DNA of 64,000 nucleotides from an uncultured bacterium (lineage in GTDB: Bacteria > Omnitrophota > Omnitrophia > Omnitrophales > Abzuiibacteriaceae), in assembly GCA_964387845.1 (NCBI GenBank), contig CAYLXA010000003.1:96001-160000 (forward strand), given 5' to 3'. Position 1 is the stretch's first letter. The number at the start of each line of letters is the position of its first letter. The notes beneath the pieces were generated by a model. It did not search any database. It worked only from the letters and a program-made list of their open reading frames with translations, and had not been told where the DNA came from. The position numbers were made by a program, and so were the translations under genes. Positions 15,567 through 58,240 of this stretch are shown one piece after another.

Positions 15567-15683
15567 AACTCAAGTATAAATTCGGGAAATTACGGCGATT
15601 GACAAAAAAGCTTTGCTTCATTATATTATCCGCTCGTATATCTTCTTATTGCGAGCGGTTGTCTCCATGAAATGCGTGATTTG

Positions 15684-15800
15684 GAGGCATCTTCGCCCAA
15701 AAGGCGGAGAAATTGAGGGACAGGCCCTATGAAACCGCGGCAACCAATTCGCTCAAAAGCAGGCGAATCCGGTGCCAACTCCTGAGAGCTGATGATTACT
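15684..15800 (+). ncRNA. SAM-I (S-box) riboswitch aptamer
   Basis: GAGGGACAGGCCCTATGAAACCGCGGCAACC ... GGTGCCAACTCCTG matches the S-box core (GAGGGAnnGGCCCnaUGAAnCCnGGCAACC ... GGUGCnAAnUCCUG). The P1 strands CATC/GATG close the aptamer. Confidence 0.8.
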
Positions 15801-15841
15801 AGAAGCCCGGCTCTAAAATAAGGGGAGGAAAAGTTTTGATT

Positions 15842-15880
15842 AAACCTCTTCTTGAATGCTCAAGAAAGAGGTTTTTTTAT
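15842..15880 (+). terminator. Intrinsic terminator (riboswitch expression platform)
   Basis: CCTCTTCTTG-aatgct-CAAGAAAGAGG hairpin followed by TTTTTTTATTTTT, immediately before the ThrC-like start codon. Confidence 0.65.
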
Positions 15881-15898
15881 TTTTAGGGGGTTTTACAA

Positions 15899-17128
15899 AT
15901 GAGTTTTGTCAGAGGCCTTAAGTGCCGCGAATGCGGAAAAATTTACCCGAAGCAGGCGCTCTATGTTTGCGAATTTTGCTTTGGTTCTTTGGAAGTTGAC
16001 TACGATTACGACGCGATTAAAAAAGCCGTCACACGTGAAAAAATCGAAAAAGGCCCCAGGAGCCTTTGGCGCTACAAAGCGCTTCTTCCCATAGACAACG
16101 AACCGACGGTCGGATTTCATTCGGGATTTACGCCGCTCGTGAAAGCCAACCAACTTGCCAAAACTTTGGGTGTTTCCGAGCTGTATATTAAAGACGATAC
16201 CGTTTGCCATCCGACATTTTCATTCAAAGACCGCGTCGTATCCGTTGCGCTCTCGAAAGCCCGCGAGCTCGGTTTCGATACGGTTTCCTGCGCTTCGACC
16301 GGAAACTTGGCGAACTCGGTTGCGGCCCACGCCGCCGCCGCAGGATTGAAGCGCTACATCTTTATCCCTCACGATTTGGAATACGCCAAAGTGCTCGGCA
16401 GTTTGATTTATCAGCCCAATTTAATTGCCGTGAAAGGCAATTATGACGACGTGAACCGGCTTTGTTCTGAAATCGCAGGCAAATACAAATGGGCTTTTGT
16501 GAACGTCAATATTCGCCCTTACTACGCGGAAGGTTCCAAAACTTTCGGATATGAAATAGCCGAACAGCTCGGCTGGAAAACGCCGAAGCATTTAGTCTGC
16601 CCGGCCGCAAGCGGTTCGCTGCTCACCAAAATCTGGAAAGCGTTTAAAGAATTTCACAAACTGGGATTCATCGAAAAACCGGAAACGAAGCTTTATTGCG
16701 CGCAGCCCGAAGGCTGTTCGCCGATTTCGGCTGCGATTAAAAATAAATCGGATGCGATCAAGCCTGTCAAGCCGAACACGATCGCCAAGTCGCTTGCGAT
16801 CGGAAATCCGGCGGATGGTTATTATGCCAAAGATGCCGTTTTGGAATCAGGCGGCGCTTCGATGATCGCCACAGACGATGAAATCCGGGAAGCGATTAAA
16901 CTGCTGGCGCAAACCGAAGGCATTTTCACGGAAACCGCGGGCGGCGTTACGGTTGCGTGCGCGAAAAAATTGATCGAACAGGGCGTCATTCCAAAAAATG
17001 AATCCATTGTGATTTCAATCACCGGAAACGGGCTCAAAACACAAGGCGCCATCCGGGATTCTGTCGGAGAGCCATCAATGATCGAGCCGAACTTAAAATC
17101 ATTTGAATCGATTCTGAACAAAAAATAA
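15899..17128 (+). CDS. Threonine synthase-family PLP enzyme with N-terminal Zn-ribbon; candidate MetM-type O-phosphohomoserine-dependent homocysteine synthase
   Basis: FSFKDR PLP-lysine motif and fold-type II PLP layout. CxxC...CxxC sits at the N-terminus. It follows an S-box riboswitch and precedes a ThiS/MoaD-like gene. Confidence 0.75.
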   Translation: MSFVRGLKCRECGKIYPKQALYVCEFCFGSLEVDYDYDAIKKAVTREKIEKGPRSLWRYKALLPIDNEPTVGFHSGFTPLVKANQLAKTLGVSELYIKDDTVCHPTFSFKDRVVSVALSKARELGFDTVSCASTGNLANSVAAHAAAAGLKRYIFIPHDLEYAKVLGSLIYQPNLIAVKGNYDDVNRLCSEIAGKYKWAFVNVNIRPYYAEGSKTFGYEIAEQLGWKTPKHLVCPAASGSLLTKIWKAFKEFHKLGFIEKPETKLYCAQPEGCSPISAAIKNKSDAIKPVKPNTIAKSLAIGNPADGYYAKDAVLESGGASMIATDDEIREAIKLLAQTEGIFTETAGGVTVACAKKLIEQGVIPKNESIVISITGNGLKTQGAIRDSVGEPSMIEPNLKSFESILNKK

Positions 17129-17165
17129 CGTATACTATCCAGACTTCACAAGGAGACAATAAATC

Positions 17166-17447
17166 ATGGCTGTCAAAGTAAGAATCCCGACACCTTTGCA
17201 AAAACTCACCAAAGATCAAGAAGAAGTAGAGTTAAAAGCAGCTTCTATTAAAGAAATGATTAACAGCCTTGAAAAACAATTCCCCGGAATCAAAGACCGG
17301 CTTTGTGATGAATCCGGCAACATCCGCCGCTTCGTCAACATTTTCCTCAACGAAGAAGACATTCGCTTCTTGAATAAAGAAGAAACTGTTTTGAAAGACG
17401 GCGATGAAGTTTCGATTGTCCCCGCAATTGCCGGAGGCGCAAGGTAA
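17166..17447 (+). CDS. MoaD/ThiS-family sulfur-carrier protein; candidate MetO-type
   Basis: 93 aa beta-grasp-like protein ending AIAGG-AR, i.e. a Gly-Gly near the C-terminus. Its stop overlaps the bioB start (TAATG). Confidence 0.6.
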   Translation: MAVKVRIPTPLQKLTKDQEEVELKAASIKEMINSLEKQFPGIKDRLCDESGNIRRFVNIFLNEEDIRFLNKEETVLKDGDEVSIVPAIAGGAR

Positions 17448-18430
17448 TGACGGTCACCACAAGCTTGATCGGTGACTTACGGGACCGCGTGCTGTTGGGC
17501 GGTGAAATTACGCGCGAAGAAGCGTGTTCATTAATTGAAATTCAGGATGAACAGCTTTTAAACGAACTCGTCAACGCCGCTCACGAAATTACGGTTTTCT
17601 TCAATTCCGAGCAGGCTCACCTTTGCTCGCTCATCAACGCAAAAAGCTATCTTTGCAGTGAAGACTGCGGATTTTGTTCCCAATCGACTCATTTTAAAAC
17701 CGAAGCCTCGCGCTACGAATTGCTCTCGGCAGATGAGATCGTCAAATCCGCGAAAAATGTAGAAGCACAAGGGATCGAAAATTTCTGTATCGTGACAAGC
17801 GGCGGTTCTTTAAATGAAAAGGAGTTTGAGCATATCATCGAAGCGGTTAAACGCTTGAAAGCCGAAACCAAACTCAACATTGACGGCTCGCTTGGTTTTC
17901 TGACGCCTGAACGCGTCGAAAAATTGAAAGAAGCCGGTATGCGGCGCTTCAACGATAATTTACAGTCCTCACGCGAATTTTATAACAAGATCGTTTCCAC
18001 ACATTCCTATGATAAACGTCTTGAGACCTTGGATTTCCTGCGCCAGGGTGATATGGATTTGTGTTCGGGCGGTATTTTCGGCATGGGCGAAACACGCGAA
18101 GACCGCGTGAATATGGCATTTGAACTAAAACGTTTTACGCCCGAATGCGTTCCGGTTAATATTTTAAATCCCCGGCCCGGGACACCGCTTGAGAATGCGC
18201 CCAAAATTGACCCGATGGAAGTTGTCAAAGCCATCGCGGTTTACCGCTTCATCCTTCCTAAATCCAATATTAAACTCGCCGGCGGCCGCGAAATTAATTT
18301 GGGTGAATTTCAAAAACTTGCTTTAAAAGCCGGTGCCAATGGCCTTGTCTCGGGCGGTTACCTCACAACAGGCGGAAACTCCTTCGACACCGACAAGGCC
18401 ATGCTCAAAGAAGCCGGTTACGACGTTTAG
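17447..18430 (+). CDS. bioB: Biotin synthase (radical SAM)
   Basis: CSEDCGFCSQ (Cx3Cx2C). FNDNLQSS matches the BioB YNHNLDTS motif, CSGGIFGMGET matches BioB CSGGIVGLGET, and KLAGGRE matches BioB RLSAGRE. Confidence 0.8.
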   Translation: MTVTTSLIGDLRDRVLLGGEITREEACSLIEIQDEQLLNELVNAAHEITVFFNSEQAHLCSLINAKSYLCSEDCGFCSQSTHFKTEASRYELLSADEIVKSAKNVEAQGIENFCIVTSGGSLNEKEFEHIIEAVKRLKAETKLNIDGSLGFLTPERVEKLKEAGMRRFNDNLQSSREFYNKIVSTHSYDKRLETLDFLRQGDMDLCSGGIFGMGETREDRVNMAFELKRFTPECVPVNILNPRPGTPLENAPKIDPMEVVKAIAVYRFILPKSNIKLAGGREINLGEFQKLALKAGANGLVSGGYLTTGGNSFDTDKAMLKEAGYDV

Positions 18431-18441
18431 CTTTCCTTTCG

Positions 18442-19170
18442 ATGGAAGTTTCTCTCGCTGGAAAAACCATTTTAATCACCGGCGGAACAAGCGCGCTGGG
18501 ATCCGAATTCGTTAAACGAGCGCTCAAAGAAAATGCCAAAATTTTCTTCACCTACTACACGAATGAAACCAAAGCCCGCGAACTTTCGGATTTGGGCGCA
18601 ATTGGTTTTAAAATCGACCTGTCAAAAATTGCTGAAATCAAATCTCTGGCTGCACAACTAAAAGCCCATACAAACGCGCTTGATGGCTTAATCAACAATG
18701 CTGCGTCCGTTAAAGACAGGACGGTTCAAAATATGTCGGATGAAGAATGGGATGAAGTGTTAAACACCGATCTAAAAGCAGCTGCTTTTATGGTCAAAGA
18801 AATGCTCCGATTTTTATTTAAAAAGAAACCGAGCAAAATTTTAAATGTGATCAGCCGCGTCGGTGTTCAAGGCGCTTTCGGCCAGGCCAATTACGCGGCG
18901 GCAAAAGGCGGACTGATTTTGCTCACGAAAAGCCTGGCCAAAGAACTCGGGAAAAAGAAAATTCTGATCAATGCTCTCAATCCCGGATTCATGAAATCCA
19001 AAATGACAGACGTGCTGCCTGCTGAGGTTATTGAGCGCAACCGACATGAAAGCGTCTTGGATGAAATCTCGAATCCTGAAGAAGCCGCGGATTTTATGAT
19101 TTATTTAATGTCGGACAAAATGACGCTTGTGAGCGGCCAAATTTTTAACATCGAGTCGAGATTGCGATGA
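18442..19170 (+). CDS. SDR-family oxidoreductase, FabG-like 3-oxoacyl reductase
   Basis: TGGTSALG Rossmann motif and a YAAAKGG (YxxxK) catalytic motif. Confidence 0.75.
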   Translation: MEVSLAGKTILITGGTSALGSEFVKRALKENAKIFFTYYTNETKARELSDLGAIGFKIDLSKIAEIKSLAAQLKAHTNALDGLINNAASVKDRTVQNMSDEEWDEVLNTDLKAAAFMVKEMLRFLFKKKPSKILNVISRVGVQGAFGQANYAAAKGGLILLTKSLAKELGKKKILINALNPGFMKSKMTDVLPAEVIERNRHESVLDEISNPEEAADFMIYLMSDKMTLVSGQIFNIESRLR

Positions 19171-20363
19171 ATCGTGTTGTGGTTACCGGCATCGGCTGCG
19201 TAGCGCCCATCGGAAATAATCAAAAAGAGTTCGCCAAAAACCTGAGCGAAGGAAAATCGGGAGCTGGGCCAATTTCAAAATTTGACACGTCAAACTTCCC
19301 CGTTAAAAAAGCGTTTGAAGTCCGTTCGTTCTCACCTGTGCCCGCTTCTAAAGCGCTCGATCCTTTCATTCAATACGGCCTCACAGCCGCTGAAGAAGCG
19401 ATTCGGGACAGCAAGCTCGATATTCCATCGATGGACCCTTATCGAGTTGGAATCGCGGTTAGTTCCAGCAAAGGCGGCATGACAACGCTCGAAAAATTCC
19501 GTGATCGATTCTTGAAACGGCCAAGCGCGCTTCTCGGAGCCCGGATTTACGCCAATACCGTTCCGAATATTTTGTCGCAGTGGATCGCGAGGCGTTGGGA
19601 ACTCAAAGGCCCCGCAAAACCTGCCGTGGCAGCCTGCGCAACCGGAACTTACGCAATTATTGAGGGCATCCGGATGATCGAGGATGATGAAACGGATGTC
19701 TGCATCGCCGGCGCAAGCGATGCGTCGATCACCAAACTAATGCTTGCCGGATATCACCAAATGGGCGTTCTTTCACCGAACGGTGTTTCTCCGTTTGATA
19801 AAACGCGCGGCGGATTTTTGGTCGGTGAAGGCGCGGGTGTTGTTATTTTAGAAAAGGAAAACCACGCGAAAGCCAGACATGCACAAATTTACGGGCGGAT
19901 TTTGAGCCATACATACGGAAATGAATGCCGGCACTTAATTTCGTTTCCGGTTGAAAGCGACGGCCTTTCATCGACGCTTATGCGGTCTATCAAAAGTGCT
20001 AATATTACGCCTTGTGACATTGATTCGCTTCAACTCCACGGAACCGCAACAGTTTCCGGTGATTTATATGAAACCGCCCAAATTAAAAAAGCATTTGGCA
20101 AGGATGCTTACAAGATTTCGATGAGCGCCATCAAATCCATGATCGGACACACGGCCGGTGCGGCAGGCGCTTTTTCATTTATCGCAAACTTGCTTTCGCT
20201 GCGCGACCAAATCATTCACCCGACGATTAATTTGAATTCGCCGGATGCCGAATGCGATTTAGACTATACGCCTTGTTATTCTAAAAAGAAAAAAATTAAA
20301 GTCGCCGGTTCGATCAGCATGGGTTTCGGCGGCCACATTGGGGCTATTTTGGTGGGAAAATGA
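19167..20363 (+). CDS. Beta-ketoacyl-ACP synthase (KAS I/II family)
   Basis: Active-site Cys in AACATGTYAI; the HGTAT and GHTAGAAG His motifs are typical of FabF/FabB. Confidence 0.8.
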   Translation: MNRVVVTGIGCVAPIGNNQKEFAKNLSEGKSGAGPISKFDTSNFPVKKAFEVRSFSPVPASKALDPFIQYGLTAAEEAIRDSKLDIPSMDPYRVGIAVSSSKGGMTTLEKFRDRFLKRPSALLGARIYANTVPNILSQWIARRWELKGPAKPAVAACATGTYAIIEGIRMIEDDETDVCIAGASDASITKLMLAGYHQMGVLSPNGVSPFDKTRGGFLVGEGAGVVILEKENHAKARHAQIYGRILSHTYGNECRHLISFPVESDGLSSTLMRSIKSANITPCDIDSLQLHGTATVSGDLYETAQIKKAFGKDAYKISMSAIKSMIGHTAGAAGAFSFIANLLSLRDQIIHPTINLNSPDAECDLDYTPCYSKKKKIKVAGSISMGFGGHIGAILVGK

Positions 20364-21508
20364 AAACCGATCAGGAATTTTCCAGTATTTCAGAAGAACT
20401 TCAATTCTTAAAAGATAGTCATCTGTTCCGAAAATTAAGAACCCTGGAAAGCATTGACTCGACTCATGTGTTATTAAATGGGAAAAAGGTTTCTTTGTTT
20501 TGTCATAACGACTACCTGGGCCTAAGCAAACACCCTGATGTTGCAGAAGCCTTCTCACAAGGTGTCCGTGATTTTGGCGCCGGCTCGGGCGCTGCGCGGC
20601 TCATCACCGGCAATACAACCGTATTTGAAAAATTAGAAGAGCGTCTCGCCCAGTTTAAGAAAAAAGAACGCGCACTTCTGTTTTCGACCGGTTATTTGGC
20701 TAATCTCGGCATCATCTCGGCCTTTTGCGAGAAAGAGGATGTTGTGATTGTCGATAAGCTTAATCACGCTTCAATCATTGATGCCTGCAAGCTTTCGGGC
20801 GCAACCATTCGTGTTTATCCGCACAAAGATTTGGATTATTTGGAGAAAATTCTCAAGCAATCTGATCGATTCCGAAGAAAATTAATCGTTACGGATTCTG
20901 TTTTCAGCATGGACGGCGACTTGGCCCCGCTGCCTGAAATTGTAAAGCTTAAGAACCGCTACGGCGCTTATTTAATGATTGATGAAGCGCATGGAACCGG
21001 CGTTTTTGGAAAGTCAGGACGCGGAGCAGCGGAATATTTGAACGTAGAGGATGAAATCGACATTTCGATGGGAACTTTGTCAAAAGCGTTTGGGACGCAC
21101 GGCGGATTTGTGGCGGGGAGTTCTGAGCTCATCGAATTTTTAATCAACCGGAGCCGTAGTTTTATATTCTCAACCGCCCTTCCGCCCGCGGTTTGCGCGG
21201 CAAGCTTGAAATCGTTGGAATTAATCGAACAAAAGCCGGAGCTAAGAGATCGTTTGTGGAAAAATATTAAAAGCACGGTAGACAACCTAAAACTTTCCGG
21301 CACTTCACCGATTATCCCTGTCATGATTGGCGATGAGCAAAAAGCGATGAATTTATCCGAAAAACTACTCGAAAACAGCATTTTGATCCCGGCAGTTCGG
21401 TATCCGACAGTCCCTAAAAAATCCGCGCGTCTTCGCTTAACTGTTTCGGCTGCTCACAGCCAAAGCGACCTGGAAACCCTGATTTCTACACTTAAAAAAC
21501 ACCTTTAA
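20360..21508 (+). CDS. bioF: 8-amino-7-oxononanoate synthase (alpha-oxoamine synthase family)
   Basis: PLP-lysine region TLSKAFGTHGG and DEAHGTG. Biotin-cluster context. Confidence 0.7.
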   Translation: MKTDQEFSSISEELQFLKDSHLFRKLRTLESIDSTHVLLNGKKVSLFCHNDYLGLSKHPDVAEAFSQGVRDFGAGSGAARLITGNTTVFEKLEERLAQFKKKERALLFSTGYLANLGIISAFCEKEDVVIVDKLNHASIIDACKLSGATIRVYPHKDLDYLEKILKQSDRFRRKLIVTDSVFSMDGDLAPLPEIVKLKNRYGAYLMIDEAHGTGVFGKSGRGAAEYLNVEDEIDISMGTLSKAFGTHGGFVAGSSELIEFLINRSRSFIFSTALPPAVCAASLKSLELIEQKPELRDRLWKNIKSTVDNLKLSGTSPIIPVMIGDEQKAMNLSEKLLENSILIPAVRYPTVPKKSARLRLTVSAAHSQSDLETLISTLKKHL

Positions 21509-21606
21509 CCCCTAATTTTCTCGACATTCGTTTTTTGCATCGATATAATGACGTCCTTGCTTCACATAACTCTCAAGAGATTCCACGCAGAAGACGAAAC
21601 TTACTC

Positions 21607-21975
21607 ATGATGACAAAACGATTTTGGATTAGCTTAACTGCATCTATTTTCTTATTCGCAAGCATCCCTGCTTCGGCAAATCCTGTCCTGCAAACCTTAA
21701 GCGGACTTGTGCTTTCGGTCAATTTAAATACCAGCCAGCTTCATGTCAAATTCGAACATCCTGTGACCGGTGAAAGCGAATTGAAAATTTTTGATGTCGA
21801 CAATAGGACCGGATTTAAACATGTGAAGGGTCTTAATCAAATCAAGCCGCAAGATCCGGTGAGTATTGATTACGAAGAAAAAACGCCGGATCAATTAAAA
21901 GCCGTTTACATCGAAGTTGTCCGTCTCAATGATGTTCCTTTTACCAAGGAACAAATTCAAAAAGCAATTCTTTAA
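21607..21975 (+). CDS. Hypothetical secreted protein
   Basis: Signal peptide MMTKRFWISLTASIFLFASIPASA. Confidence 0.4.
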   Translation: MMTKRFWISLTASIFLFASIPASANPVLQTLSGLVLSVNLNTSQLHVKFEHPVTGESELKIFDVDNRTGFKHVKGLNQIKPQDPVSIDYEEKTPDQLKAVYIEVVRLNDVPFTKEQIQKAIL

Positions 21976-36747: not shown

Positions 36748-36839
36748 TGGCGGAGAGATAGGGATTCGAACCCTAGAGACCCCGTTAAGGGCCTACGTAC
36801 TTTCCAGGCACGCCCGTTCGACCGCTCCGGCATCTCTCC
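36748..36839 (-). tRNA. tRNA-Ser (anticodon GGA), CCA encoded
   Basis: Reverse complement folds as a class II tRNA: acceptor GGAGAGA/TCTCTCC, anticodon loop CTGGAAA, long variable arm, T-loop GGGTTCGAATCCC. Confidence 0.85.
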
Positions 36840-41448: not shown

Positions 41449-41467
41449 AATGGCCTCTAAGAAAAAC

Positions 41468-41554
41468 CGGAGAGGGTAGGATTCGAACCCACGAGACCCG
41501 TAAGGGCCTAACGGTTTTCAAGACCGCCGCATTCGACCGCTCTGCCACCTCTCC
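41468..41554 (-). tRNA. tRNA-Ser (anticodon TGA)
   Basis: Reverse complement GGAGAGGTGGCAGAGCGGTCGAATGCGGCGGTCTTGAAAACCG...GGGTTCGAATCC...CTCTCC-G; anticodon loop CTTGAAA. Confidence 0.85.
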
Positions 41555-41635
41555 AAGTATCAGTTGTAAGCTGTAAGTGCTAAGAATTCTTTTTTTGACT
41601 TACCACTTACAACTTATCGCTTAACACTAGAAGAA

Positions 41636-41728
41636 CGGAGAGGGGGGGATTTGAACCCCCGGTGGCACTTTTCAATGCCACAGCGGTTTAGCAAACCGCC
41701 GCACTAAACCGGGCTATGCGACCTCTCC
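41636..41728 (-). tRNA. tRNA-Ser (anticodon GCT)
   Basis: Reverse complement GGAGAGGTCGCATAGCCCGGTTTAGTGCGGCGGTTTGCTAAACCGC...GGGGGTTCAAATCCCCC...CTCTCC-G; anticodon loop TTGCTAA. Confidence 0.85.
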
Positions 41729-41810
41729 ACATATCAGTCGTAAGTTATAAGTGTTAAGTGATAAGAAACACCTATTTCTTGGCTTACCACTTACAACTTA
41801 TCACTTACCA

Positions 41811-43067
41811 CTAAGCTAAGTACTGATCTAAAACTTTTGGCAGTTTGATGCTGCCATCTGCTTGCTGACAATTCTCGAGTAAACATAGAAACGTTCTCGC
41901 AAGCGCAACGCCGGAACCATTCAGCGTATGGACAAACTTGGGTTTTCCGCCGTCTGCCGGCTTATATTTCACATTGATCCGCCGCGCCTGAAAATCAAAA
42001 AACGTGCTGCAGCTGGATACTTCAAACCATCTTCCGGTTCCCGGCGCCCATGCTTCGATATCATAACATTTTGCCGCTGCAAAACTCATGTCGCCGCTTG
42101 AAAGCAGCAAAACTCTGTAAGGAATCTCGAGAAGCTGCAAAATTTCCTCGGCATCTTTCACCAATTTTTCAAGTTCATTGAGCGACTCTTCCGGCTTTAC
42201 AAATTTTACCAGCTCAACTTTATCAAATTGATGAACACGCGAAAGCCCTTTTGTATCTTTCCCGTAAGAGCCGGCTTCCCTTCTAAAACATGGTGTGTAG
42301 GCCACATATTTCACGGGTAAATCTTTTTCGCCAAGCACATCATCCCGGTGCATATTGGTCACCGGAACTTCCGCCGTCGGGATCAAAAACAAATCATCAT
42401 CTTTGAGCCGGTACATGTCTTCTTCAAATTTTGGAAGCTGGCCTGTGCCGGTCATGCTTGCACGGTTGACCAAAAGCGGCGGCCAAACCTGTTTGTAACC
42501 ATGCTTTTTGGCATGAAGATCGACCATTAAATTAATGAGCGCCCGCTCGAGCTTGGCGCCATCACCTTTAAAAATAGGAAAAGCACTGCCTGAAATTTTG
42601 GCGCCTGTTTCCATGGATAGCCAGCCAAGCGCATTGGCCAGAGCAACGTGGTCCTTGGTTTTAAAGGAGAATTCGGTCTTTTTACCCCATTCCCGCACAA
42701 CCTGATTAGCTGAAGCGTCTTTCCCGATAGGCACGCTATCATCTATAATATTTGGGATATTAAGTATTAATTTATCAATATGTAATTCTATATGCCCCAC
42801 TTTTGAGTCAATTTCAGCTATTTTTTGGGATAATGTCTTTCCTTCTTCTATTTGCTTAGAAATGTCCTTTTTGTCGTGTTTAAGACGGCTTACTTGATCG
42901 TTTAATTCGTTCCGTTTGGCCTTAAAAACATCGGTTTCCTGGATCAATTTACGCTTTTCGGCATCTAAAGCGACGATTTCATCAATGGTTTTTGGGTCGA
43001 CACGCTTTGCGGACAGTTTTTTCTTGTACAAATCTGGGTTTTCGCGAATGAGTTTAAGGTCAAGCAT
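41811..43067 (-). CDS. serS: Seryl-tRNA synthetase
   Basis: MLDLKLIREN N-terminal coiled-coil arm and class II aaRS motifs. Confidence 0.9.
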   Translation of the reverse strand: MLDLKLIRENPDLYKKKLSAKRVDPKTIDEIVALDAEKRKLIQETDVFKAKRNELNDQVSRLKHDKKDISKQIEEGKTLSQKIAEIDSKVGHIELHIDKLILNIPNIIDDSVPIGKDASANQVVREWGKKTEFSFKTKDHVALANALGWLSMETGAKISGSAFPIFKGDGAKLERALINLMVDLHAKKHGYKQVWPPLLVNRASMTGTGQLPKFEEDMYRLKDDDLFLIPTAEVPVTNMHRDDVLGEKDLPVKYVAYTPCFRREAGSYGKDTKGLSRVHQFDKVELVKFVKPEESLNELEKLVKDAEEILQLLEIPYRVLLLSSGDMSFAAAKCYDIEAWAPGTGRWFEVSSCSTFFDFQARRINVKYKPADGGKPKFVHTLNGSGVALARTFLCLLENCQQADGSIKLPKVLDQYLA

Positions 43068-43112: not shown

Positions 43113-45638
43113 TTAGGATTTACTACTACTTGATTTGGGTGTTTTTTTTGCGGGGGCTTCGTCTGCAACAGAATCTTCCGCTTCTTTGGAAACCACTCGA
43201 GTTGCGGAAGCTACATGGTCTTTATCTTTTAATTTAATCAGGCGGACGCCCTGGGTGTTGCGGCCGCAGGTGCGGATTTGTTCGCCGGGGCAACGGACAA
43301 CCATTCCGGATGATGTGGCTAAAATAACTTCGTCTTCATCCTGTACGGTCAACACGTTGACGATGTGGCCGTTCTTGTCCGTCACTTTTGTGTTGATGAT
43401 GCCCTTCCCGCCGCGGGATTGCAGCCGGTATTCTTTGTACAGCGTCTTTTTACCGAATCCTTTGCTTGTAACCGTCAGCGCCGTGTCTTTTTCGCTGACG
43501 ATTTCGACTGCGACTACTTCGTCTTTTTTCTCGAGACGGATGCCGCGAACACCCGAAGCCGTGCGGCCCATCTCGCGCGCGTCTTTCTCATTAAAACGGA
43601 TGGCTTTGCCCAATTTGGTCGCGATGAAAATTTCGTTTTTGCCATCCGTGATCTTGCAGCCGATAAGTTCATCTTTGTCGCGAAGCTTGATAGCCTGAAT
43701 ACCGGTTGTTCTGGGGTGTGAATAGGCCTCGAGATTGGTTTTCTTGATCGTTCCATCTTTTGTGACCATCACCAAGAAATTTTTATCGCTATATTCTTTC
43801 ACCTGAATAAAACTCGATACGGTTTCCCCTTGCCCGAGCGCGAGCAAATTGACAATGGCCTTGCCGCGCGCCTGCCTGGAGCCTTGCGGAATTTCGTAAG
43901 CTTTCCGCCAATAACACCGGCCTTTGTTTGTAAAAAACATGATGTGATCGTGCGTCGATGCTAAAAACAAATGCTCGATAAAATCTGTATCTTCATCGCC
44001 GACACCGCCGCCCGTTACGCCGCGGCCTCCGCGCTTTTGAAGCCGGTACATGCTGACCGGAATCCGCTTGATATAACCCTGATGCGAAATGGAGATCAAA
44101 ACATCCTCTTCGGCAATCAAATCTTCGATGTCAATATCGGTTTCCGCTGCAACGATTTGTGTGCGCCGTTCGTCGCCGTATTTCTTCGAGATTTCCTGAG
44201 ATTCTTCTTTAACAATCGCAAGGATTTTTTGCCGGCTCTTTAAAAGCGATTTGTAGTATTCGATTCTTTTGAGGAGCTCTAGATATTCTTCCTCGATTTT
44301 ATCCCGCTCAAGTGCCGTCAAGCGCTGAAGCTGCATTTCGAGAATGGCTTTTGCCTGGATTTCCGAGAGTTTGAAATTTTTAACGAGCGCTTCTTTTGCG
44401 ATCTCCGGATTTTTGGATGCGCGGATGGTTTTGATGACCTTGTCGAGATTGGCAATTGCGATTTTTAAGCCTTCCAAAATATGCGCGCGCTTCTCGGCCT
44501 TATCGAGCTCGAATTTGGTCCTTCGTGTAATGACTTCCGCACGGAACTGAATAAAATATTCGAGCATCTGCTTGATATTGAGCACGCGCGGCTGGCCATC
44601 GACCAGCGCAAGCATGATCACGCCGAATGTTTCCTGCATCTGTGTATGTTTGAAGAGTTGATTCAGAATAATGTTGGCGTTTGCATCGCGTTTTAATTCG
44701 ACTACAACCCGCATGCCATCGCGGTCGGATTCGTCGCGGATGTTGGAAATGCCTTCGACTTTTTTGTTCTCGACAAGCCTCACGATTGATTCGATGAGGT
44801 TTGTTTTGTTAACCTGATAAGGAATTTCGGTGATGATAATCGCGTCTTTCTTGCCTTTTGTTTCCGAAGTCTCGATTAACGCTTTTGCGCGCACCACGAT
44901 GCGGCCGCGGCCGGTTTCCTGGTAATTTTTGATGCCGTCTTTCCCGCAAATAATTCCGGCGGTCGGAAAATCAGGGCCTTTGATTAATTTGGAAATGTCT
45001 TTGATCGAAATGGTTGGATCGTCAATCACGGCACAAATGCCGTCGACGATTTCTTTCAAATTGTGCGGCGGAATGTTGGTTGCCATGCCGACTGCAATGC
45101 CGCTTGAACCATTTACCAAACAATTTGGAATGCGCGTCGGTAAAATCGAAGGTTCTTCAAGCGATTCGTCGAAATTAGGAACAAATTCGACCGTATCTTT
45201 ATCAATGTCACCCAGAAATTCGCTTGAAATCGCAGAAAGCCGGGCTTCCGTATAACGCATCGCTGCTGCGTTGTCGCCGTCGACCGAGCCGAAGTTCCCC
45301 TGGCCGTCAACGAGCGGATAACGAAGCGAAAAATCTTGGACCATGCGGACGAGCGTGTCATAAACTGCTGTGTCGCCGTGCGGGTGGTATTTTCCGAGCA
45401 CTTCTCCGACGATACGCGCGGATTTCTTGTAGGGTTTGTTGTGCGGAAGGCCGAGTTCGTTCATTGCGTGAAGAATGCGGCGATGCACGGGTTTTAAGCC
45501 GTCACGAACGTCCGGCAATGCGCGGCCGACGATGACGCTCATTGCGTAGTCAATATAACTACGCTCCATCTCGTCTTCGATCGGAATCGGAATAATTTTT
45601 TCGTTCATTGCATATATATTTTGCTCATCAGCGGCCAT
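43113..45638 (-). CDS. gyrA: DNA gyrase subunit A
   Basis: [30 protein letters not shown] and [10 protein letters not shown] (active-site Tyr region). Confidence 0.95.
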
Positions 45639-45656
45639 GTTTGCTTTGTTCCTTTA

Positions 45657-48203
<2,547 letters not shown>

Positions 48204-48512
48204 TTACAAATCGCTTACACAAAACCATATTTTTTTAATTCTTTCTTCGCCGAACTCGTTTTGGAGACGTTTTAAAATCGCGGGGCCGTAATTCTGGCTT
48301 AATTCGAACGACAGCGCCGAACTCTCCGTATAAACCTTCACGCCGCCTTGATTTAATGAAGGCTTTGTTTTTGCTGCAATTCTTTCTCCGACAATCTTGG
48401 GCCAACACTCGGCCAAACGCGTATTTTCTTTTTTGGGTTCTTCCGTAAACCCGGCAAATATTCTTTTGATCGCCGCCGCGAGCGGCTTTGTTTCTTGTAG
48501 CGCTGTGTTCAT
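48204..48512 (-). CDS. DUF721/DciA-like protein
   Basis: About 100 aa protein directly between dnaN and gyrB, the usual position of DUF721/DciA. Confidence 0.55.
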   Translation of the reverse strand: MNTALQETKPLAAAIKRIFAGFTEEPKKENTRLAECWPKIVGERIAAKTKPSLNQGGVKVYTESSALSFELSQNYGPAILKRLQNEFGEERIKKIWFCVSDL

Positions 48513-49610
48513 TTAGGCAATCTGCATCGGCATGATGACGTACATGTAATTGTCTTTACCGCGAATCAGGCCCGGTTTATCCGATTTCGACATCGAAATT
48601 TTTACTTCGCCTTCTTCCATGATTTTTAATACATCGATTAAATAGTGCGGGTTAAATCCGATGCTGATCGAGTCGCCATTCACGGAAGCATCCAATTCCT
48701 CTTTCACTTCGCCCAGATTTGCCGAATGAGCCGATACCAGCACTTTCCCGTTCATAAAATCAAGTTTCACGGCTTGTGCATCTTGTGAGGTAAAAAGAGA
48801 TGCGCGCTTAACGGCTGAGAGAAATGTTTGGCGGTCGACAGAACCGATTGTGCTTTCTTCTTTTGGGATCACTTGTTCGTAGTTTGGGAAGCGTCCTTCT
48901 ATTAATCTTGTAATCACGTAGGTGTTGTCGAGATGAAATAAAACTTGGTTTTGCAACTCAGCAATTTTTAAAACACCGTCCGGTTTCAAGATTTTCCCAA
49001 GCTCATGAACCGCTTTCACAGGCACAATCACTTCTAGTGATTTTTTAACAGGCTTGCTTAATTCTTTTTCAACATAAGCCAGCCGCCTGCCGTCGGTCGC
49101 GATAAATCTGATTTTTTTATCGCTCGCTTTAATCAAAACACCGTTCAGCACATAACGAGCTTCATCATGAGAAATAGCAAATGATGTGAGCGATAAACAC
49201 TCTTTGACGATATTTTGATCAATTTCGATCGCGTCATTGAGGTTAAATTCGGGAAGTTTCGGAAAATCTTCCCGCCCTAATCCCATCAACTTACAATATG
49301 TTTTTCCTGTTTTGATATTTACGGCATTGTTCTTATTAACTGTAACCAAAACCTCTCCGGACGGAAGCTCGCGAATCACATCCAGGAACTTACGTGCCGG
49401 CACCGTAATACTACCTTCCGTTATGTTGCGCGATTTCACTTTTGTGCACAGCCCGATTTCTAAATCAGTGCTTGTGAATTGAACCGTATCTTTCCCCACG
49501 GTTTCCACCAAAATATTTCCCAAAATCGGCAATGTCGCACGCGGATTTACACCACCCACTGTGATGCTGAGAGCATTATTAAGATCTTCTTTGTTGATGT
49601 TGAATTCCAT
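48513..49610 (-). CDS. dnaN: DNA polymerase III beta sliding clamp
   Basis: Three-domain clamp of about 365 aa, immediately downstream of dnaA. Confidence 0.9.
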   Translation of the reverse strand: MEFNINKEDLNNALSITVGGVNPRATLPILGNILVETVGKDTVQFTSTDLEIGLCTKVKSRNITEGSITVPARKFLDVIRELPSGEVLVTVNKNNAVNIKTGKTYCKLMGLGREDFPKLPEFNLNDAIEIDQNIVKECLSLTSFAISHDEARYVLNGVLIKASDKKIRFIATDGRRLAYVEKELSKPVKKSLEVIVPVKAVHELGKILKPDGVLKIAELQNQVLFHLDNTYVITRLIEGRFPNYEQVIPKEESTIGSVDRQTFLSAVKRASLFTSQDAQAVKLDFMNGKVLVSAHSANLGEVKEELDASVNGDSISIGFNPHYLIDVLKIMEEGEVKISMSKSDKPGLIRGKDNYMYVIMPMQIA

Positions 49611-49779
49611 GTTTTGCTCCTCTTATACTCTTTTAAATATTAAAAACAGAAGAAAAAGTAGTAGGTGTTCAAAATTATGTTGATAACTATCGTATCCTAT
49701 TTAAAATAAACATCTTACAAATACATAAAGTTGTGAACAACTTAGACATAAACCGCCAAACTCTTATGACAAATGTTAA
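49611..49779. promoter_or_regulatory. AT-rich dnaA-dnaN intergenic region with DnaA-box-like sequences (candidate oriC part)
   Basis: TGTTGATAA (reverse complement TTATCAACA, one mismatch to TTATCCACA) and TTGTGAACA. Confidence 0.35.
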
Positions 49780-51141
49780 TTATTTTCTGATCGCTGCCAA
49801 GAGCTGATCAACTGCCCGTTTTGTTTCAAAATCATGCTTAACCCTGTTTTTGATCTTATTGATGGCGTGAATGACAGTAGCGTGGCCCCGGCCGCCAAAA
49901 AAATCACCGATTTCGGGCAATGACTTAACTGTAAGCTCACGAACCAGATACATCGCAACTTGCCTAGGGAAAACCACCGATTTAGAGCGCCGTTTTGCGC
50001 GCAAATCAGAAACTTTGATTCCGAAATAATCACAAACACAGCGCTGAATGTGTTCGATTGTGATTTTGCTTTCTTCCTCCCGGAAAGAGTCTTTTAAAAC
50101 ATTCTGTGCCGAGTGAATATCGACCGGGATACCGGTTAAGGACGCATACGCAATGACCCTGACAAGCGCACCCTCAAGTTCGCGGATGTTAGACCGGATT
50201 TTATCAGCGATAAAAAACAACACCTCGTTTGATACCGAAACTTTTTGCCGATCGACAATCTTTTTTAAGATGGCAACGCGCGTCTCCAGCTCGGGCGGCT
50301 GGATGTCGGCAACCAGCCCCCAGCCAAATCTCGAAACAAGGCGCTCTTCAAGCCCTGGGATATCTTTGGGCGGCCGGTCGCTTGTGACAACGATTTGTTT
50401 ATGTGCATCGTAGAGCGTATTGAATGTATGGAAAAATTCTTCCTGTGTTGATTCCTTGCCCGCAATGAAGTGAATGTCATCGATCAGCAGCAAATCCGCC
50501 GTTCTGTATCTTTCTCTAAATGCCGCTGTGGTACGGGTTTGTATTGCAGAAATGAGTTGATTTGTGAATTGTTCGCTTGAAATATAAACTACTTTCGAAG
50601 AAGGGTTTTTTGCCATCACTGTTTGGGCAATAGATTGGAGCAAGTGTGTTTTTCCAAGCCCAACACTTCCGTAAATGAACAGCGGGTTGTATTGCTTTGC
50701 CGGGTCTTCAGCGACTGCGAGCGCGGCTGCGTGCGCAAAACGGTTCCCGGGGCCGATTACAAAATCATCAAAAGTATATTTCCGGTTAAGATCAATATCA
50801 GATGGTCTTTTCTTCGTTCCGCTGGGCCGGTCCGGCGTCGGCGCAACCGTTGTTTCAAATTGCGGCTGCTCAACCACGACATAGTGTATTTCCGGCCGAG
50901 CGCCAATCATCTCAGCCGCGGCACTTTTCATAATGTCTTCATAATGTTCATGCAGCCATTCACCATAAAACTGATCCGGAACTGATAAAACCAAAGCCTC
51001 CGTCCCTATGGATTTGCAAGCGACGGGTTTTATCCATGTGTTAAAGCTCTGCTCGCTTAACTCTTTTCTTATTCCTGAGAGGATCTTTTGCCAGATATTA
51101 TTGGCATCAGAAAGAGTTTCTTGAGGGGTCTTATTTTCCAT
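49780..51141 (-). CDS. dnaA: Chromosomal replication initiator DnaA
   Basis: Walker A GSVGLGKTHLL and the C-terminal DNA-binding helix VVFPRQVAMYL. Confidence 0.95.
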   Translation of the reverse strand: MENKTPQETLSDANNIWQKILSGIRKELSEQSFNTWIKPVACKSIGTEALVLSVPDQFYGEWLHEHYEDIMKSAAAEMIGARPEIHYVVVEQPQFETTVAPTPDRPSGTKKRPSDIDLNRKYTFDDFVIGPGNRFAHAAALAVAEDPAKQYNPLFIYGSVGLGKTHLLQSIAQTVMAKNPSSKVVYISSEQFTNQLISAIQTRTTAAFRERYRTADLLLIDDIHFIAGKESTQEEFFHTFNTLYDAHKQIVVTSDRPPKDIPGLEERLVSRFGWGLVADIQPPELETRVAILKKIVDRQKVSVSNEVLFFIADKIRSNIRELEGALVRVIAYASLTGIPVDIHSAQNVLKDSFREEESKITIEHIQRCVCDYFGIKVSDLRAKRRSKSVVFPRQVAMYLVRELTVKSLPEIGDFFGGRGHATVIHAINKIKNRVKHDFETKRAVDQLLAAIRK

Positions 51142-51390
51142 AAATCATTTATTTAAAATAACTTACGAGTATATCAGGAGAGGCATTCACAAGTAACAAA
51201 AGTTATTAACAATTATCAACAATAATTAACAAGTTATAAACAGAATAGAAACAACCGTTATTATCCTCAGAATTCTGAGCAAATCAAGCCAAAAACACCA
51301 AATTTAAAGAGCCGTATTTTAGCCACGAAAAAATGAAAAGTCTATTTTTATTTTGGCCCCATCGGGCGAGTTCTGTTATAATGCGCGGCT
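51142..51390. promoter_or_regulatory. AT-rich region between dnaA and rpmH with DnaA-box-like motifs (candidate oriC / divergent promoters)
   Basis: TTATTAACA, TTATCAACA and TTATCCTCA boxes, plus a TATAAT just before rpmH. Confidence 0.35.
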
Positions 51391-51528
51391 ATGAATCCAA
51401 CATATAATCCATCAAAAAGAAAACGCAAGCGAAAACACGGTTTTTTGAAGCGGTCGAAAACTTCCAAAGGTCGTCAGGTTTTACAGCGCCGTAGACGCAA
51501 GGGCCGGAAGCGTTTAACGACTGTTTAA
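51391..51528 (+). CDS. rpmH: 50S ribosomal protein L34
   Basis: [45 protein letters not shown] (45 aa). Not in the ORF track because it is under 60 aa. Confidence 0.85.
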
Positions 51529-51572
51529 TAAAAGCAGCCAAGCTGTTCATCCTTTCCGCTATTTCAATTTGA

Positions 51573-51923
51573 ATGCGCCAGTCTTTTTCTAAACAGGAAA
51601 AACTTTCTCGGGCTTCGGATATTCGCCGCGTGCTCCGGTCGCATCAAAGCGCAAGAGGCGGCGGTTTTTCCGTTCAGTGGCGGAGGGCGGACGCGGCACA
51701 GGATCATTCGCGCTTCGGCGTTTTGGTTTCGGCGAAATCAATCAAAGGCGCCGCGAAACGAAACCGAATGAAGCGGCTTGTGCGTGAATTTTTCAGGTTG
51801 AACAAACAGAATTTTCGCTTTAAAGGCGATTTTGTAATTCGCGTGAATGATTATAAGCATTTGAAATATAAAGAGTTAGAGCAAATTTTAAAACCAGTTT
51901 TAACACGCGTAGGTTTGTTTTAA
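51573..51923 (+). CDS. rnpA: RNase P protein component
   Basis: Basic protein of about 116 aa directly after rpmH. Confidence 0.8.
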
Positions 51924-52132
51924 TGAAAACAATATTGTTGATCGTTATAGGCTTTTATCAAAAATGGATTTCGCCTTTACTCGGCAATCATTGCCGGTTT
52001 GCACCGAGCTGTTCAGAGTATGCGAAATCGGCGATCGAGCAAAAAGGGATTTTAAAAGGAACCGGCCTCGCTGTTGTGAGAATTTCAAAATGTCATCCGC
52101 TGCACGAAGGCGGCTATGACCCTGTGGTGTAA
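51923..52132 (+). CDS. yidD: Membrane protein insertion efficiency factor YidD
   Basis: [23 protein letters not shown] signature. Confidence 0.8.
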
Positions 52133-52135
52133 ATA

Positions 52136-53749: not shown

Positions 53750-53859
53750 TTGATATTTTCATTCCGTTTATATTTTGTTGATAAGTTTATCTTTCTAGTC
53801 ATAAGTTATTTTTAATAAATGACTTATGATGTATTAAAAATCCACTCAGGCTGTTCAAA

Positions 53860-55674: not shown

Positions 55675-55676
55675 TT

Positions 55677-55692
55677 TGTTTCACGTGAAACA
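55677..55692. promoter_or_regulatory. parS site (TGTTTCACGTGAAACA)
   Basis: Perfect match to the ParB/Spo0J parS palindrome, 226 bp upstream of parA. Confidence 0.85.
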
Positions 55693-55822
55693 CAAATTAG
55701 TATTAATTCGTAAGTTGTTATATATAAATTATTTATTTAAATTAAATAGATTGATTGACTAAATATTAAAGATTAGATATAAAGAACGAAATTGTTGTAG
55801 TCGAAACAAAATCTATGAAGAA

Positions 55823-55838
55823 TGTTTCACGTGGAACA
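55823..55838. promoter_or_regulatory. parS site, one mismatch (TGTTTCACGTGGAACA)
   Basis: 15/16 match to the parS consensus, 80 bp upstream of parA. Confidence 0.7.
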
Positions 55839-55917
55839 ATCGGTCTAATGTTTTTTAAAATGCCTCTCAATTTATCAGTGCCTTTCGAAATTAAAAGAAA
55901 TTAACCCGGAGATCACA

Positions 55918-56766: not shown

Positions 56767-56781
56767 TGAAAGGGAAATCAC

Positions 56782-57906: not shown

Positions 57907-58191
57907 ATGGCGTGTGTTTATGTTATTTATAGTCAGATAAAAGAGAAATTTTACGTAGGTTCGAGCAGAGAAGAAACTGCCACCCAAAGAATTCTATCCC
58001 ACAACGCAGGCAAAACAAGATCAACTAAATCTGGCCGCCCTTGGGTGTTAGTATTTGAAGAACAATTTCTCAACTATACGGAAGCAAGAAAAAGAGAAAA
58101 CTTCTTAAAGTCAGGTGTTGGTAGACAATTTATTAAGCAAAAATGGAGAGGTGCCAGAGCGGTCGAATGGGGCGGTCTCGAAAACCGTTAG
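57907..58191 (+). CDS. GIY-YIG nuclease-superfamily protein (YhbQ-like)
   Basis: VYVIYS...FYVGSS...R...H...NAGKTRST...E layout of a GIY-YIG domain. Its last 47 nt overlap the tRNA-Ser(CGA) gene. Confidence 0.6.
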   Translation: MACVYVIYSQIKEKFYVGSSREETATQRILSHNAGKTRSTKSGRPWVLVFEEQFLNYTEARKRENFLKSGVGRQFIKQKWRGARAVEWGGLENR

Positions 58192-58231
58192 GCTCTTATG
58201 GGTCTCCTGGGTTCGAATCCCAGCCTCTCCG
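58145..58231 (+). tRNA. tRNA-Ser (anticodon CGA)
   Basis: GGAGAGGTGCCAGAGCGGTCGAATGGGGCGGTCTCGAAAACCG...GGGTTCGAATCCC...CTCTCC-G; anticodon loop CTCGAAA. Confidence 0.85.
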
Positions 58232-58240
58232 ATTATTTTT

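Follow-up and report, generated by a model that had tools for sequence, protein, structure and literature searches.

A SAM-I-type leader upstream of a threonine-synthase-like enzyme and a sulfur carrier in an uncultured Omnitrophota bacterium: a probable MetM/MetO-type route to homocysteine

We analyzed a stretch of DNA of 64 kilobases (kb) from an uncultured bacterium of the phylum Omnitrophota (positions 96,001 to 160,000 of contig CAYLXA010000003.1, assembly GCA_964387845.1; the whole stretch is hereafter termed the window). The subject is a pair of adjacent genes, the first encoding a pyridoxal 5'-phosphate (PLP) enzyme of the threonine synthase (ThrC) family and the second a ThiS/MoaD-like sulfur-carrier protein, together with the leader preceding them, which resembles an S-adenosylmethionine (SAM)-I riboswitch, and the biotin genes following them. 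The genome was viewed through the window only, and the counts on relatives given below come from other loci. The G+C content of the window is 45%, and its proteins find their best matches in metagenome-assembled genomes of Candidatus Omnitrophica/Omnitrophota.

A similar combination has been described in Streptomyces albulus. In the accounts that PMC12172450 and GapMind (2026) give of Hasebe et al. (2024, Appl Environ Microbiol 90:e01247-24), MetM of S. albulus is a ThrC homolog, often misannotated, that forms homocysteine from O-phosphohomoserine and the thiocarboxylate of the carrier MetO, with Mec and MoeZ as accessory proteins and a SAM riboswitch located 5' of metM.

Gene Organization of the Locus

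The features of the locus, with the evidence for each, are as follows.

15599..15627, + strand: promoter of the sigma-70 type (TTGACA-17 nt-TATATT, 11/12 consensus matches; nt, nucleotides)
15641..15826, + strand: SAM-I (S-box) aptamer (RF00162 core, minimum free energy [MFE] fold, covariance model R1, homologous leaders)
15661..15710, + strand: lineage-specific insertion of two hairpins in P2 (leader comparison, MFE fold)
15819..15854, + strand: antiterminator (helix of 10 base pairs [bp], pairing possible in nine homologous leaders)
15842..15885, + strand: intrinsic terminator (stem 15842-55/15860-74, then TTTTTTTATTTTT)
15899..17128, + strand: metM-like gene for a Zn-ribbon PLP enzyme of the ThrC family, 409 amino acids (aa) (Pfam, motifs, identity comparisons, tree)
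17166..17447, + strand: metO/cysO-like gene for a 93-aa beta-grasp carrier ending PAIAGG-AR (PF02597, AlphaFold2 model)
17447..18430, + strand: bioB, biotin synthase (start overlaps the carrier stop)
18442-19170, + strand: fabG-like gene (co-directional gene string)
19167-20363, + strand: fabF-like gene (co-directional gene string)
20360-21508, + strand: bioF (co-directional gene string)

The carrier gene starts 38 nt 3' of the enzyme gene, and its stop codon overlaps the ATG of bioB (TAATG, 17445-17449). After the carrier gene, bioB, the fabG-like gene, the fabF-like gene and bioF form a gapless co-directional string to about 21508, and no convincing terminator was found on the + strand between 17128 and 21508. 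A preliminary description, made from the sequence alone, had recognized the enzyme/carrier pair but missed both the downstream bioB-fabG-fabF-bioF genes and the 5' boundary of the aptamer; position 15684, where it placed the start of the element, falls inside the true aptamer.

Aptamer in the Leader

The preliminary description had read the leader as an S-box core and proposed a check against RF00162. In a sensitive scan, RF00162 matched 15707-15817 at 38.0 bits (E = 2.9e-7 for the leader alone and 5.3e-5 for the whole window), under the gathering score of 44.4 bits, and the default Rfam scan of the window, which applies the curated thresholds, listed tRNAs only and not SAM-I. The match was local (model positions 11-100), with P1 absent and the lower P2 pairs non-canonical. 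The score stays below the threshold because an insertion of ~55 nt in P2 separates P1 and the 5' strand of P2a from the core.

Folding of 15640-15828 without constraints gave an MFE structure (-67.7 kcal/mol, z = -3.06) with all of the expected helices, namely P1 (15641-50/15817-26, 10 bp), P2a (15655-60/15733-38), P2b (15716-19/15725-28), P3 (15739-53/15762-76) and P4 (15785-91/15808-14), as well as two hairpins in the insertion. The conserved core letters agree with the SAM-I consensus (GAGGGA...GGCCC...GAA...CGGCAACC...GGUGCCAA.UCC). We gathered 160 related loci from genomes and metagenomes (designated by L numbers below), and nine distinct relatives (enzyme identity, 76-95%), like the window, have an S-box core 150-210 nt 5' of the enzyme gene. 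The compact leaders, which are free of the insertion, scored well against RF00162 (83.4 bits for L090, 77.9 for L103, 71.8 for L094, 68.5 for L088 and 65.8 for L009), and the L003/L007 leader reached 46.2 bits. A covariance model built from five compact relatives with the window excluded (R1) gave a single strong match in the 64-kb window, at 15704-15788 with 49.9 bits and E = 2.2e-13, the next best match being at 14 bits. The core match to RF00162, the MFE fold with P1-P4, the R1 match and the homologous leaders at 46-83 bits together support the S-box assignment, and the leader is almost certainly a SAM-I-type aptamer.

The alignment of R1 paired the 3' strand of P2a with GCGG of insertion hairpin B (15704-07; see below). 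This pairing was rejected, as the L087 leader lacks that alternative, and the conserved GCGG at 15655-58 was taken as the native partner of P2a instead. RNAalifold on the five relatives found two-sided changes in 5 of 24 pairs, three of them in P2a, in a sample that is small and in a MAFFT alignment that is imperfect in P1 and P4. When all nine leaders were aligned by MAFFT, the 5' strand of P2a was misplaced around the insertion, and the 3' strand of P1 and P4 were misplaced in the L009 group; we therefore relied on the Rfam alignments, RNAalifold on the compact set, the independent covariance model and the MFE folds. The leaders of L088 (3753-3849) and L003 (9784-9941) were found to be devoid of helix P4, GGTGCCAATTCCTG being joined directly to AAAATAAGAG, and still scored 68.5 and 46.2 bits, respectively.

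The insertion lies between the 5' strand of P2a and the GA-GGG of the kink-turn (K-turn) region, and comprises hairpin A (15661-67/15682-88) and hairpin B (15690-97/15703-10). The leaders of the window, L001 and L087 share the 5' strand of P1 and junction J1/2 (TCTTCTTATTGCGAGCGGT) with L090 and carry about 55 extra nt. Hairpin B shows compensatory changes, CTTCGCC/GGCGGAG in the window corresponding to CTTTGCTG/CAGCAAAG in L087. An unrelated insert of 57 nt occupies the same site in L003, and no insert was found at this site in L088, L090, L009, L094 or L103. The two hairpins may replace the K-turn by a junction-type element.

Elsewhere, no SAM riboswitch emerged when all loci were scanned with a regular expression and seven loci from other phyla with Rfam; the enzyme gene was found to be preceded by one only in the subclade of the window and in an actinobacterial locus (see below). 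Control by a riboswitch is therefore not general to the enzyme family.

Promoter and Expression Platform

The promoter places the start of the transcript a few nt 5' of P1, and TTGAC...TATA boxes occupy the same position in the leaders of L088, L090, L009, L094 and L103. The full leader folded into the aptamer followed by the terminator (-85.3 kcal/mol). The intrinsic terminator noticed in the preliminary description is borne out by a stem and U-run of -17.6 kcal/mol. The antiterminator is formed by TAAGGGGAGG (15819-28), which overlaps the 3' strand of P1, and CCTCTTCTTG (15845-54), which is part of the 5' arm of the terminator; in the nascent transcript, the two make a 10-bp helix of -9.8 kcal/mol. 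Equivalent, mutually exclusive pairings of P1, antiterminator and terminator were found in all nine homologous leaders, and CCTCTTCTT was invariant in nine out of nine. This platform would correspond to the classical S-box design, in which SAM turns expression OFF. Matches to the PyrG leader, atoC and psbA at 15808-15883 were below threshold and reflect the terminator hairpin only.

The ThrC-Like Enzyme

The first gene had been assigned to the threonine synthase family but set apart from authentic ThrC, and both halves of that assignment held. The 409-aa protein matches Pfam PALP (PF00291, E = 1e-66), bears the FSFKDR motif with K110, and possesses four N-terminal Zn-ribbon cysteines (C9, C12, C24 and C27), conserved without exception in the 91 members of the family. 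A Pfam match to NinF was discarded, as it merely reflects the CxxC...CxxC ribbon. Against four crystallised bacterial ThrCs (6CGQ, 2ZSJ, 1UIM and 2D1F), none of which has the N-terminal Zn-ribbon, the enzyme scored 166-205 bits with about 33-40% identity.

In 20 Nitrospirota loci, a second ThrC-family gene is found at a distance of 1-2 kb from a member of the family of the window enzyme (66-68% identical). The product of this second gene, of about 360 aa, is 34-38% identical to the window enzyme and scores 431-510 bits against the four ThrC structures (510 to 2ZSJ). After this true ThrC come HomK (TIGR02535, 563 bits) and aspartate kinase; 5' of the cluster lie homoserine dehydrogenase, TusA, ThiF and JAB. 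We regard this arrangement as strong comparative support for O-phosphohomoserine as the substrate.

In the Nitrospirota cluster (L056, L058, L063, L065, L069-L074 and L078-L086), the genes are arranged in the order hom, TusA, ThiF, JAB, MetM-like, ThiS, NIL, canonical ThrC, HomK and aspartate kinase, so that both consumers of O-phosphohomoserine adjoin an alternative homoserine kinase.

The family of the window enzyme (n = 91) and canonical ThrCs (n = 22) are fixed for different residues at 37 alignment positions, including T88L, S89A, S155N, N157R, R160Y and N191L in the numbering of Bacillus subtilis. T88, S155, R160 and N191 probably belong to the phosphate site of ThrC.

A probable kinship with MetM was gauged indirectly, through homologs in Microcystis and Nonomuraea. 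The window enzyme is 61% identical to the Microcystis protein labeled 'thrC (metM)' and 33% identical to canonical Microcystis ThrC; the former is reported to be 51.6% identical to S. albulus MetM and to adjoin a metO-like gene (PMC12172450). In Nonomuraea gerenzanensis, a SAM-I riboswitch of 68.7 bits is followed by a Zn-ribbon ThrC-like gene and then by a gene for a 91-aa carrier, as in the MetM/MetO arrangement already published. Over 407 aa that include the Zn-ribbon, the Nonomuraea enzyme is 52% identical to that of the window; the same genome encodes a separate canonical ThrC elsewhere. The Nonomuraea sequence (L167) was retrieved from PLSDB as NZ_LT559118.1, an 11.85-Mb replicon filed as 'plasmid I', which is effectively the chromosome and is scarcely annotated there. 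A homology search seeded with the Nonomuraea enzyme retrieved Streptosporangiales only, without extending to Streptomyces, and a representative search with cluster look-up gave one named actinobacterial member, of Micromonosporaceae. In a neighbor-joining tree made without bootstrap, the clade of the window enzyme and the actinobacterial clade grouped together, apart from canonical ThrCs and from a group of 36-41% identity, and the Microcystis and Nonomuraea homologs fell in the same part of the Zn-ribbon family.

The scores of 166-205 bits, as compared with 431-510 for the true Nitrospirota ThrC, and the 37 fixed differences support the prediction that the enzyme is a MetM-type paralog and not canonical ThrC. 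The comparison with cysteate synthase suggested in the preliminary description was also run, and that identity was rejected (71 bits against a cutoff of 325).

The Sulfur Carrier

The 93-aa protein matches PF02597 (ThiS) with E = 1.7e-17 and also the archaeal MoaD/SAMP models. Its closest solved relatives are 4N6E_B, the carrier of the BexX/CysO complex of Amycolatopsis orientalis (E = 3.6e-19), and 3DWG_C, CysO of Mycobacterium tuberculosis (E = 1.9e-17), the matches extending over the full length. The AlphaFold2 model has a mean predicted local distance difference test value of 87.5, with the last four residues disordered, and Foldseek aligned it with 4N6E_B at a template modeling (TM) score of 0.90 (root-mean-square deviation of 1.4 A) and with 3DWG_C at 0.89. 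The MoaD/ThiS-like assignment made in the preliminary description is thus sustained down to the beta-grasp fold, and on the evidence of the model the protein is a carrier of the CysO/MetO type.

The C-terminus PAIAGG is invariant in the family, and AR is added in the window. Of 120 close homologs, 48 terminate at GG, and the tails of the others are short and unconserved; among the carriers linked to the enzyme loci, a tail is present in 46/63 and a GG end in 17/63. The Nonomuraea carrier, 45% identical to that of the window, ends at GG. The L017 carrier has the same AR tail, and JAB and ThiF are encoded in the same cluster. No clear association was found between the tail and JAB, which is present in the loci of 23/46 tailed and 6/17 GG-ended carriers. 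The caution in the preliminary description about the GG-AR terminus was apt, given that short tails are common in the family and that JAB often lies in the same cluster; the AR tail would need to be processed before the Gly-Gly could be used.

Genomic Context of the Family

The context of the enzyme family was surveyed in 81 non-redundant loci, many of which are cut by contig ends. The counts are as follows.

ThiS-type carrier with the enzyme gene: 64/81 loci
ThiF: 43/81 loci
CysM/CysK-type enzyme, including some ThiS-CysM fusions: 43/81 loci
NIL-domain small protein: 36/81 loci
JAB: 35/81 loci
sulfite reductase: 33/81 loci
TusA: 28/81 loci
3'-phosphoadenosine 5'-phosphosulfate (PAPS) reductase: 19/81 loci
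PHO4-type transporter: 17/81 loci

Siroheme genes are also frequent in the related loci. The neighborhood is that of ubiquitin-like proteins in sulfur assimilation catalogued by Iyer et al. (2006; PMC1779556), to which the ThrC-like enzyme is added here.

Several side observations were made in these loci. The NIL protein (~79 aa, PF09383, a domain of the MetN C terminus), noted in 37 loci, is in many clusters encoded directly 3' of the carrier or ThiF gene (for example, 7849-8088 in L052 and 11662-11892 in L009). ThiS is fused to a CysM-like PLP enzyme of about 370-386 aa in L006 (8687-9796) and about 25 other loci. L066 (547-2868) encodes a 773-aa sulfite-reductase-like protein which, judged by eye, seems to end in a TusA-like domain, and the heme/siroheme genes hemA, hemC, cobA-hemD, hemB and hemL, likewise assigned by inspection, are embedded between JAB and CysM.

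Proposed Mechanism

The locus agrees with the S. albulus system in gene content, gene order, regulation and the families of its proteins: in both, a ThrC homolog, prone to annotation as threonine synthase, is followed by a ThiS/MoaD carrier and preceded by a SAM riboswitch. We therefore class it with the known MetM/MetO kind, of which, judging from these comparisons, it is most likely a further example. The two differ in that the window comes from another phylum, carries the 55-nt insertion in the aptamer and the GG-AR tail, has no visible Mec or MoeZ, and shows an operon that runs into biotin genes.

In the mechanism that we propose, transcription from the promoter at 15599-15627 would let the leader fold into the SAM-I aptamer. 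Bound SAM would stabilise P1 and thereby keep TAAGGGGAGG from the antiterminator, so that the terminator forms and transcription stops before the genes; at low SAM, the antiterminator would form first and RNA polymerase would read through. In the proteins so made, the AR tail of the carrier would be trimmed to expose the Gly-Gly, which an E1-like adenylating enzyme of the ThiF/MoeZ type, encoded elsewhere in the genome, would adenylate, leading to the thiocarboxylate. The ThrC-like enzyme would then eliminate phosphate from O-phosphohomoserine and attach the carrier thiocarboxylate at C-gamma, after which an acyl shift and hydrolysis would free homocysteine, the precursor of methionine and hence of SAM, closing the feedback loop. 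The architecture of the RNA and its homology to SAM-I, the family memberships of both proteins and the genomic associations of the family have direct support; from them we infer that SAM is bound and turns expression OFF, which substrates and chemistry are used, that the tail is trimmed, and that the genome encodes an E1 and a protease. We put the probability of the full mechanism, a SAM-OFF switch controlling MetM/MetO-type homocysteine synthesis, at roughly 75%. The MetM/MetO reading offered in the preliminary description thus gains the support of the riboswitch, the MetM-type enzyme, the CysO-type carrier, and the Nonomuraea and Microcystis homologs.

Several points weigh against this interpretation. 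The window aptamer stays below the Rfam gathering threshold (38.0 < 44.4 bits), and its insertion sits at the usual position of the K-turn, so that binding of SAM cannot be taken for granted. At -9.8 to -11.8 kcal/mol, the antiterminator is less stable than the terminator (-17.6 to -19.8 kcal/mol); switching would therefore presumably be kinetic. The enzyme passes the NCBI equivalog model for thrC (TIGR00260, 276.5 bits against a cutoff of 167.1), a model that evidently also captures MetM-type proteins, as exemplified by a Magnetobacterium family member at 294 bits. The link to the characterised S. albulus proteins is an indirect one, and the Microcystis homolog reportedly has threonine synthase and deaminase activity in vitro and does not behave fully as MetM in vivo (PMC12172450). 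As to the partners, the preliminary description had seen neither an E1-like protein nor a JAMM protease in the window, and a tblastn search of the 64 kb with the ThiF and JAB sequences of related loci likewise returned nothing at E <= 1e-3. Homoserine kinase, sulfite reductase and other met genes are also absent from the window, where ThiF, JAB, TusA, NIL, HomK, Hom, aspartate kinase, sulfite reductase, MetX and MetY were all missing, and the closest relatives with a linked bioB have no ThiF or JAB within about 10 kb. Finally, a SAM-OFF switch placed before biotin genes, the products of which consume SAM, is odd as regulation.

Biotin Genes and Alternative Explanations

All riboswitch-bearing loci that are long enough to tell have the gene order enzyme-carrier-(NIL)-bioB-fabG-fabF-bioF, even where the identity of BioB falls to 49-52%. 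The window BioB scores 273.6 and 230.8 bits against the two Type II structures (8VDW and 8VCW) and 172.3 bits against Escherichia coli BioB. At the positions of E. coli S43, C97, C128, C188 and R260, it has C, C, D, C and K, an atypical pattern of auxiliary-cluster ligands. All of the 24 carrier-linked BioBs (window, L001, L007-L011, L014, L018, L022 and L087-L100) follow the pattern C/C/D or E/C/K, with D or E at position 128, and two unlinked BioBs (L015 and L036) show the Cys/Ser swap of Type II. From its sequence, the carrier-linked BioB would represent a subtype that is Type II-like overall, with Cys at S43 and C97, Asp/Glu for C128 and Lys for R260. The fabG-like and fabF-like genes between bioB and bioF may point to an unusual route to pimeloyl-acyl carrier protein. 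A 146-aa open reading frame without Pfam match follows bioF (21535-21975), and bioA, bioD, bioC and bioH are not adjacent to the biotin operon.

This linkage suggests an alternative in which the carrier, alone or with the ThrC-like enzyme, was recruited as the sulfur supply of the co-transcribed atypical BioB, besides or instead of homocysteine synthesis. The overlap of the carrier stop with the bioB start, the gene order kept at a BioB identity as low as 49%, and the ligand pattern common to 24/24 linked BioBs, against the Type II-like pattern of the two unlinked ones, all speak for it. In addition, the physiological sulfur donor of Type II BioB is unknown, that of non-Type-I BioBs being acknowledged as such, and searches for helper genes by comparative genomics have failed (PMC10813225). 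On the other hand, the association, seen in a single clade, could simply have been inherited as synteny, most other phyla have the pair but no bioB with it, and no E1 is encoded nearby. We know of no precedent for a thiocarboxylate feeding the auxiliary cluster of a radical-SAM enzyme. Given this restriction to a single clade and the bioB-free pairs found elsewhere, we rate a relay from carrier to BioB low: recruitment for BioB is improbable, and so is the specific proposal that the carrier is the physiological donor regenerating the auxiliary cluster of an undescribed BioB subtype in this Omnitrophota lineage.

Less probable again is that the pair spends the carrier thiocarboxylate on a product other than homocysteine, such as cysteine made from O-phosphoserine in the manner of CysM, or another thio-amino acid. 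The nearest solved carriers are indeed CysO proteins, the partners of which are CysM or a thiosugar synthase, and many related clusters contain CysM or ThiS-CysM fusions together with sulfite reductase. However, 43/81 loci already encode a separate CysM-type enzyme, the Nitrospirota context of homoserine dehydrogenase, HomK and ThrC is one of O-phosphohomoserine metabolism, the ligand predicted to be sensed is SAM and not cysteine, and the score for cysteate synthase is far under its cutoff (71 against 325 bits).

Least probable of all, despite the TIGR00260 score, a PRK08197 score just short of its cutoff (298.5 against 303 bits), the annotation of all named homologs as threonine synthase and the in vitro activity of the Microcystis homolog (PMC12172450), is that the enzyme is the ordinary threonine synthase of the organism and the carrier serves another pathway, as control by a SAM riboswitch makes no sense for thrC, its family shares only 33-38% identity with canonical ThrCs and co-occurs with one in 20 loci, in Nonomuraea and in Microcystis, 37 ThrC-invariant positions are replaced, and the carrier gene comes next in 64/81 loci.

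Comparison with Other Known Systems

The locus was also compared with three further systems and with the SAM-I family. In the M. tuberculosis cysteine pathway of CysM, CysO and Mec, reported by Burns et al. in 2005, a PLP enzyme of fold-type II likewise combines an O-phospho amino acid with the thiocarboxylate of a carrier protein. The window carrier is 44% identical to M. tuberculosis CysO (PDB 3DWG), with TM scores of 0.89-0.90 to carriers of this type, and the related loci also contain ThiS-CysM fusions and JAB proteases. The difference lies in the partner, which in the window is ThrC-like, with O-phosphohomoserine as the predicted substrate and homocysteine as the predicted product.

The HcyS/HcyF/HcyD/MetY system of Wolinella succinogenes, reported by Krishnamoorthy and Begley in 2011, makes methionine via homocysteine in a thiocarboxylate-dependent manner, the C-terminal extension of the carrier being cut by a JAB/JAMM protease. 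It uses O-acetylhomoserine and MetY, a fold-type I enzyme. Like this system, L006, L017 and many of the related loci cluster genes for E1, TusA/SirA, sulfite reductase and sulfate activation; the Wolinella-type neighborhood corresponds to type 4e of PMC1779556. In contrast, the enzyme here is ThrC-like, and HomK near the relatives points to O-phosphohomoserine.

With canonical ThrC (6CGQ of B. subtilis, 2ZSJ of Aquifex, 1UIM of Thermus thermophilus and 2D1F of M. tuberculosis), the window enzyme shares fold-type II, the lysine of SFKDR and, probably, the substrate O-phosphohomoserine, and differs in its extra N-terminal Zn-ribbon, the 37 family-specific substitutions and its coexistence with true ThrC in clusters. 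The leader shares with RF00162 the conserved core, the four helices at a junction, and a terminator/antiterminator platform that takes in part of the 3' strand of P1, and differs in the two-hairpin module (~55 nt) at the position of the K-turn bulge in P2.

Other Features of the Window

On the opposite strand, an RNase-H-like gene and an isc operon (Rrf2, IscS, IscU, HscB and HscA) lie upstream of the locus, and ATP sulfurylase, PAPS reductase, PHP phosphatase and adenosine 5'-phosphosulfate kinase are encoded downstream. These sulfate-activation genes are 6-10 kb from the enzyme/carrier pair in the window; they are found directly upstream in L007, L088 and L090, and lead straight into the enzyme gene in L096 and L095.

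The remainder of the window holds a replication-origin region and carbohydrate genes. The chromosomal origin region (43113-57687) comprises gyrA, gyrB, dnaN and dnaA on the - strand and yidC, mnmG, parA and parB on the + strand. Four tRNA-Ser genes with the anticodons GGA, TGA, GCT and CGA were detected (36748-36839, 41467-41555, 41635-41729 and 58144-58232), two of which directly adjoin serS (41811-43067). Although above the tRNA threshold, the one at 58144-58232 did not appear in the default Rfam scan; ARAGORN alone detected the one at 36748-36839, which coincides with a sub-threshold tRNA-Sec match.

Implications

The leader would provide a natural test case of a SAM-I aptamer in which two hairpins are accommodated at the site of the K-turn, and insertion-bearing variants of this kind are invisible or marginal at the Rfam threshold. 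The conserved linkage with BioB offers a concrete, testable candidate for the sulfur donor of non-Type-I biotin synthases; if the relay were true, the carrier would be their missing helper factor.

If our interpretation of the locus is correct, the route from O-phosphohomoserine and a protein thiocarboxylate would extend from Actinobacteria and Cyanobacteria into Omnitrophota, and the related loci would carry it further to Nitrospirota, Margulisiibacteriota/Saganbacteria, Planctomycetia and Elusimicrobiota. In all of these groups, the two genes bear the labels threonine synthase and molybdopterin-synthase subunit, and metabolic reconstructions of these uncultivated groups would therefore wrongly show a gap in methionine synthesis.

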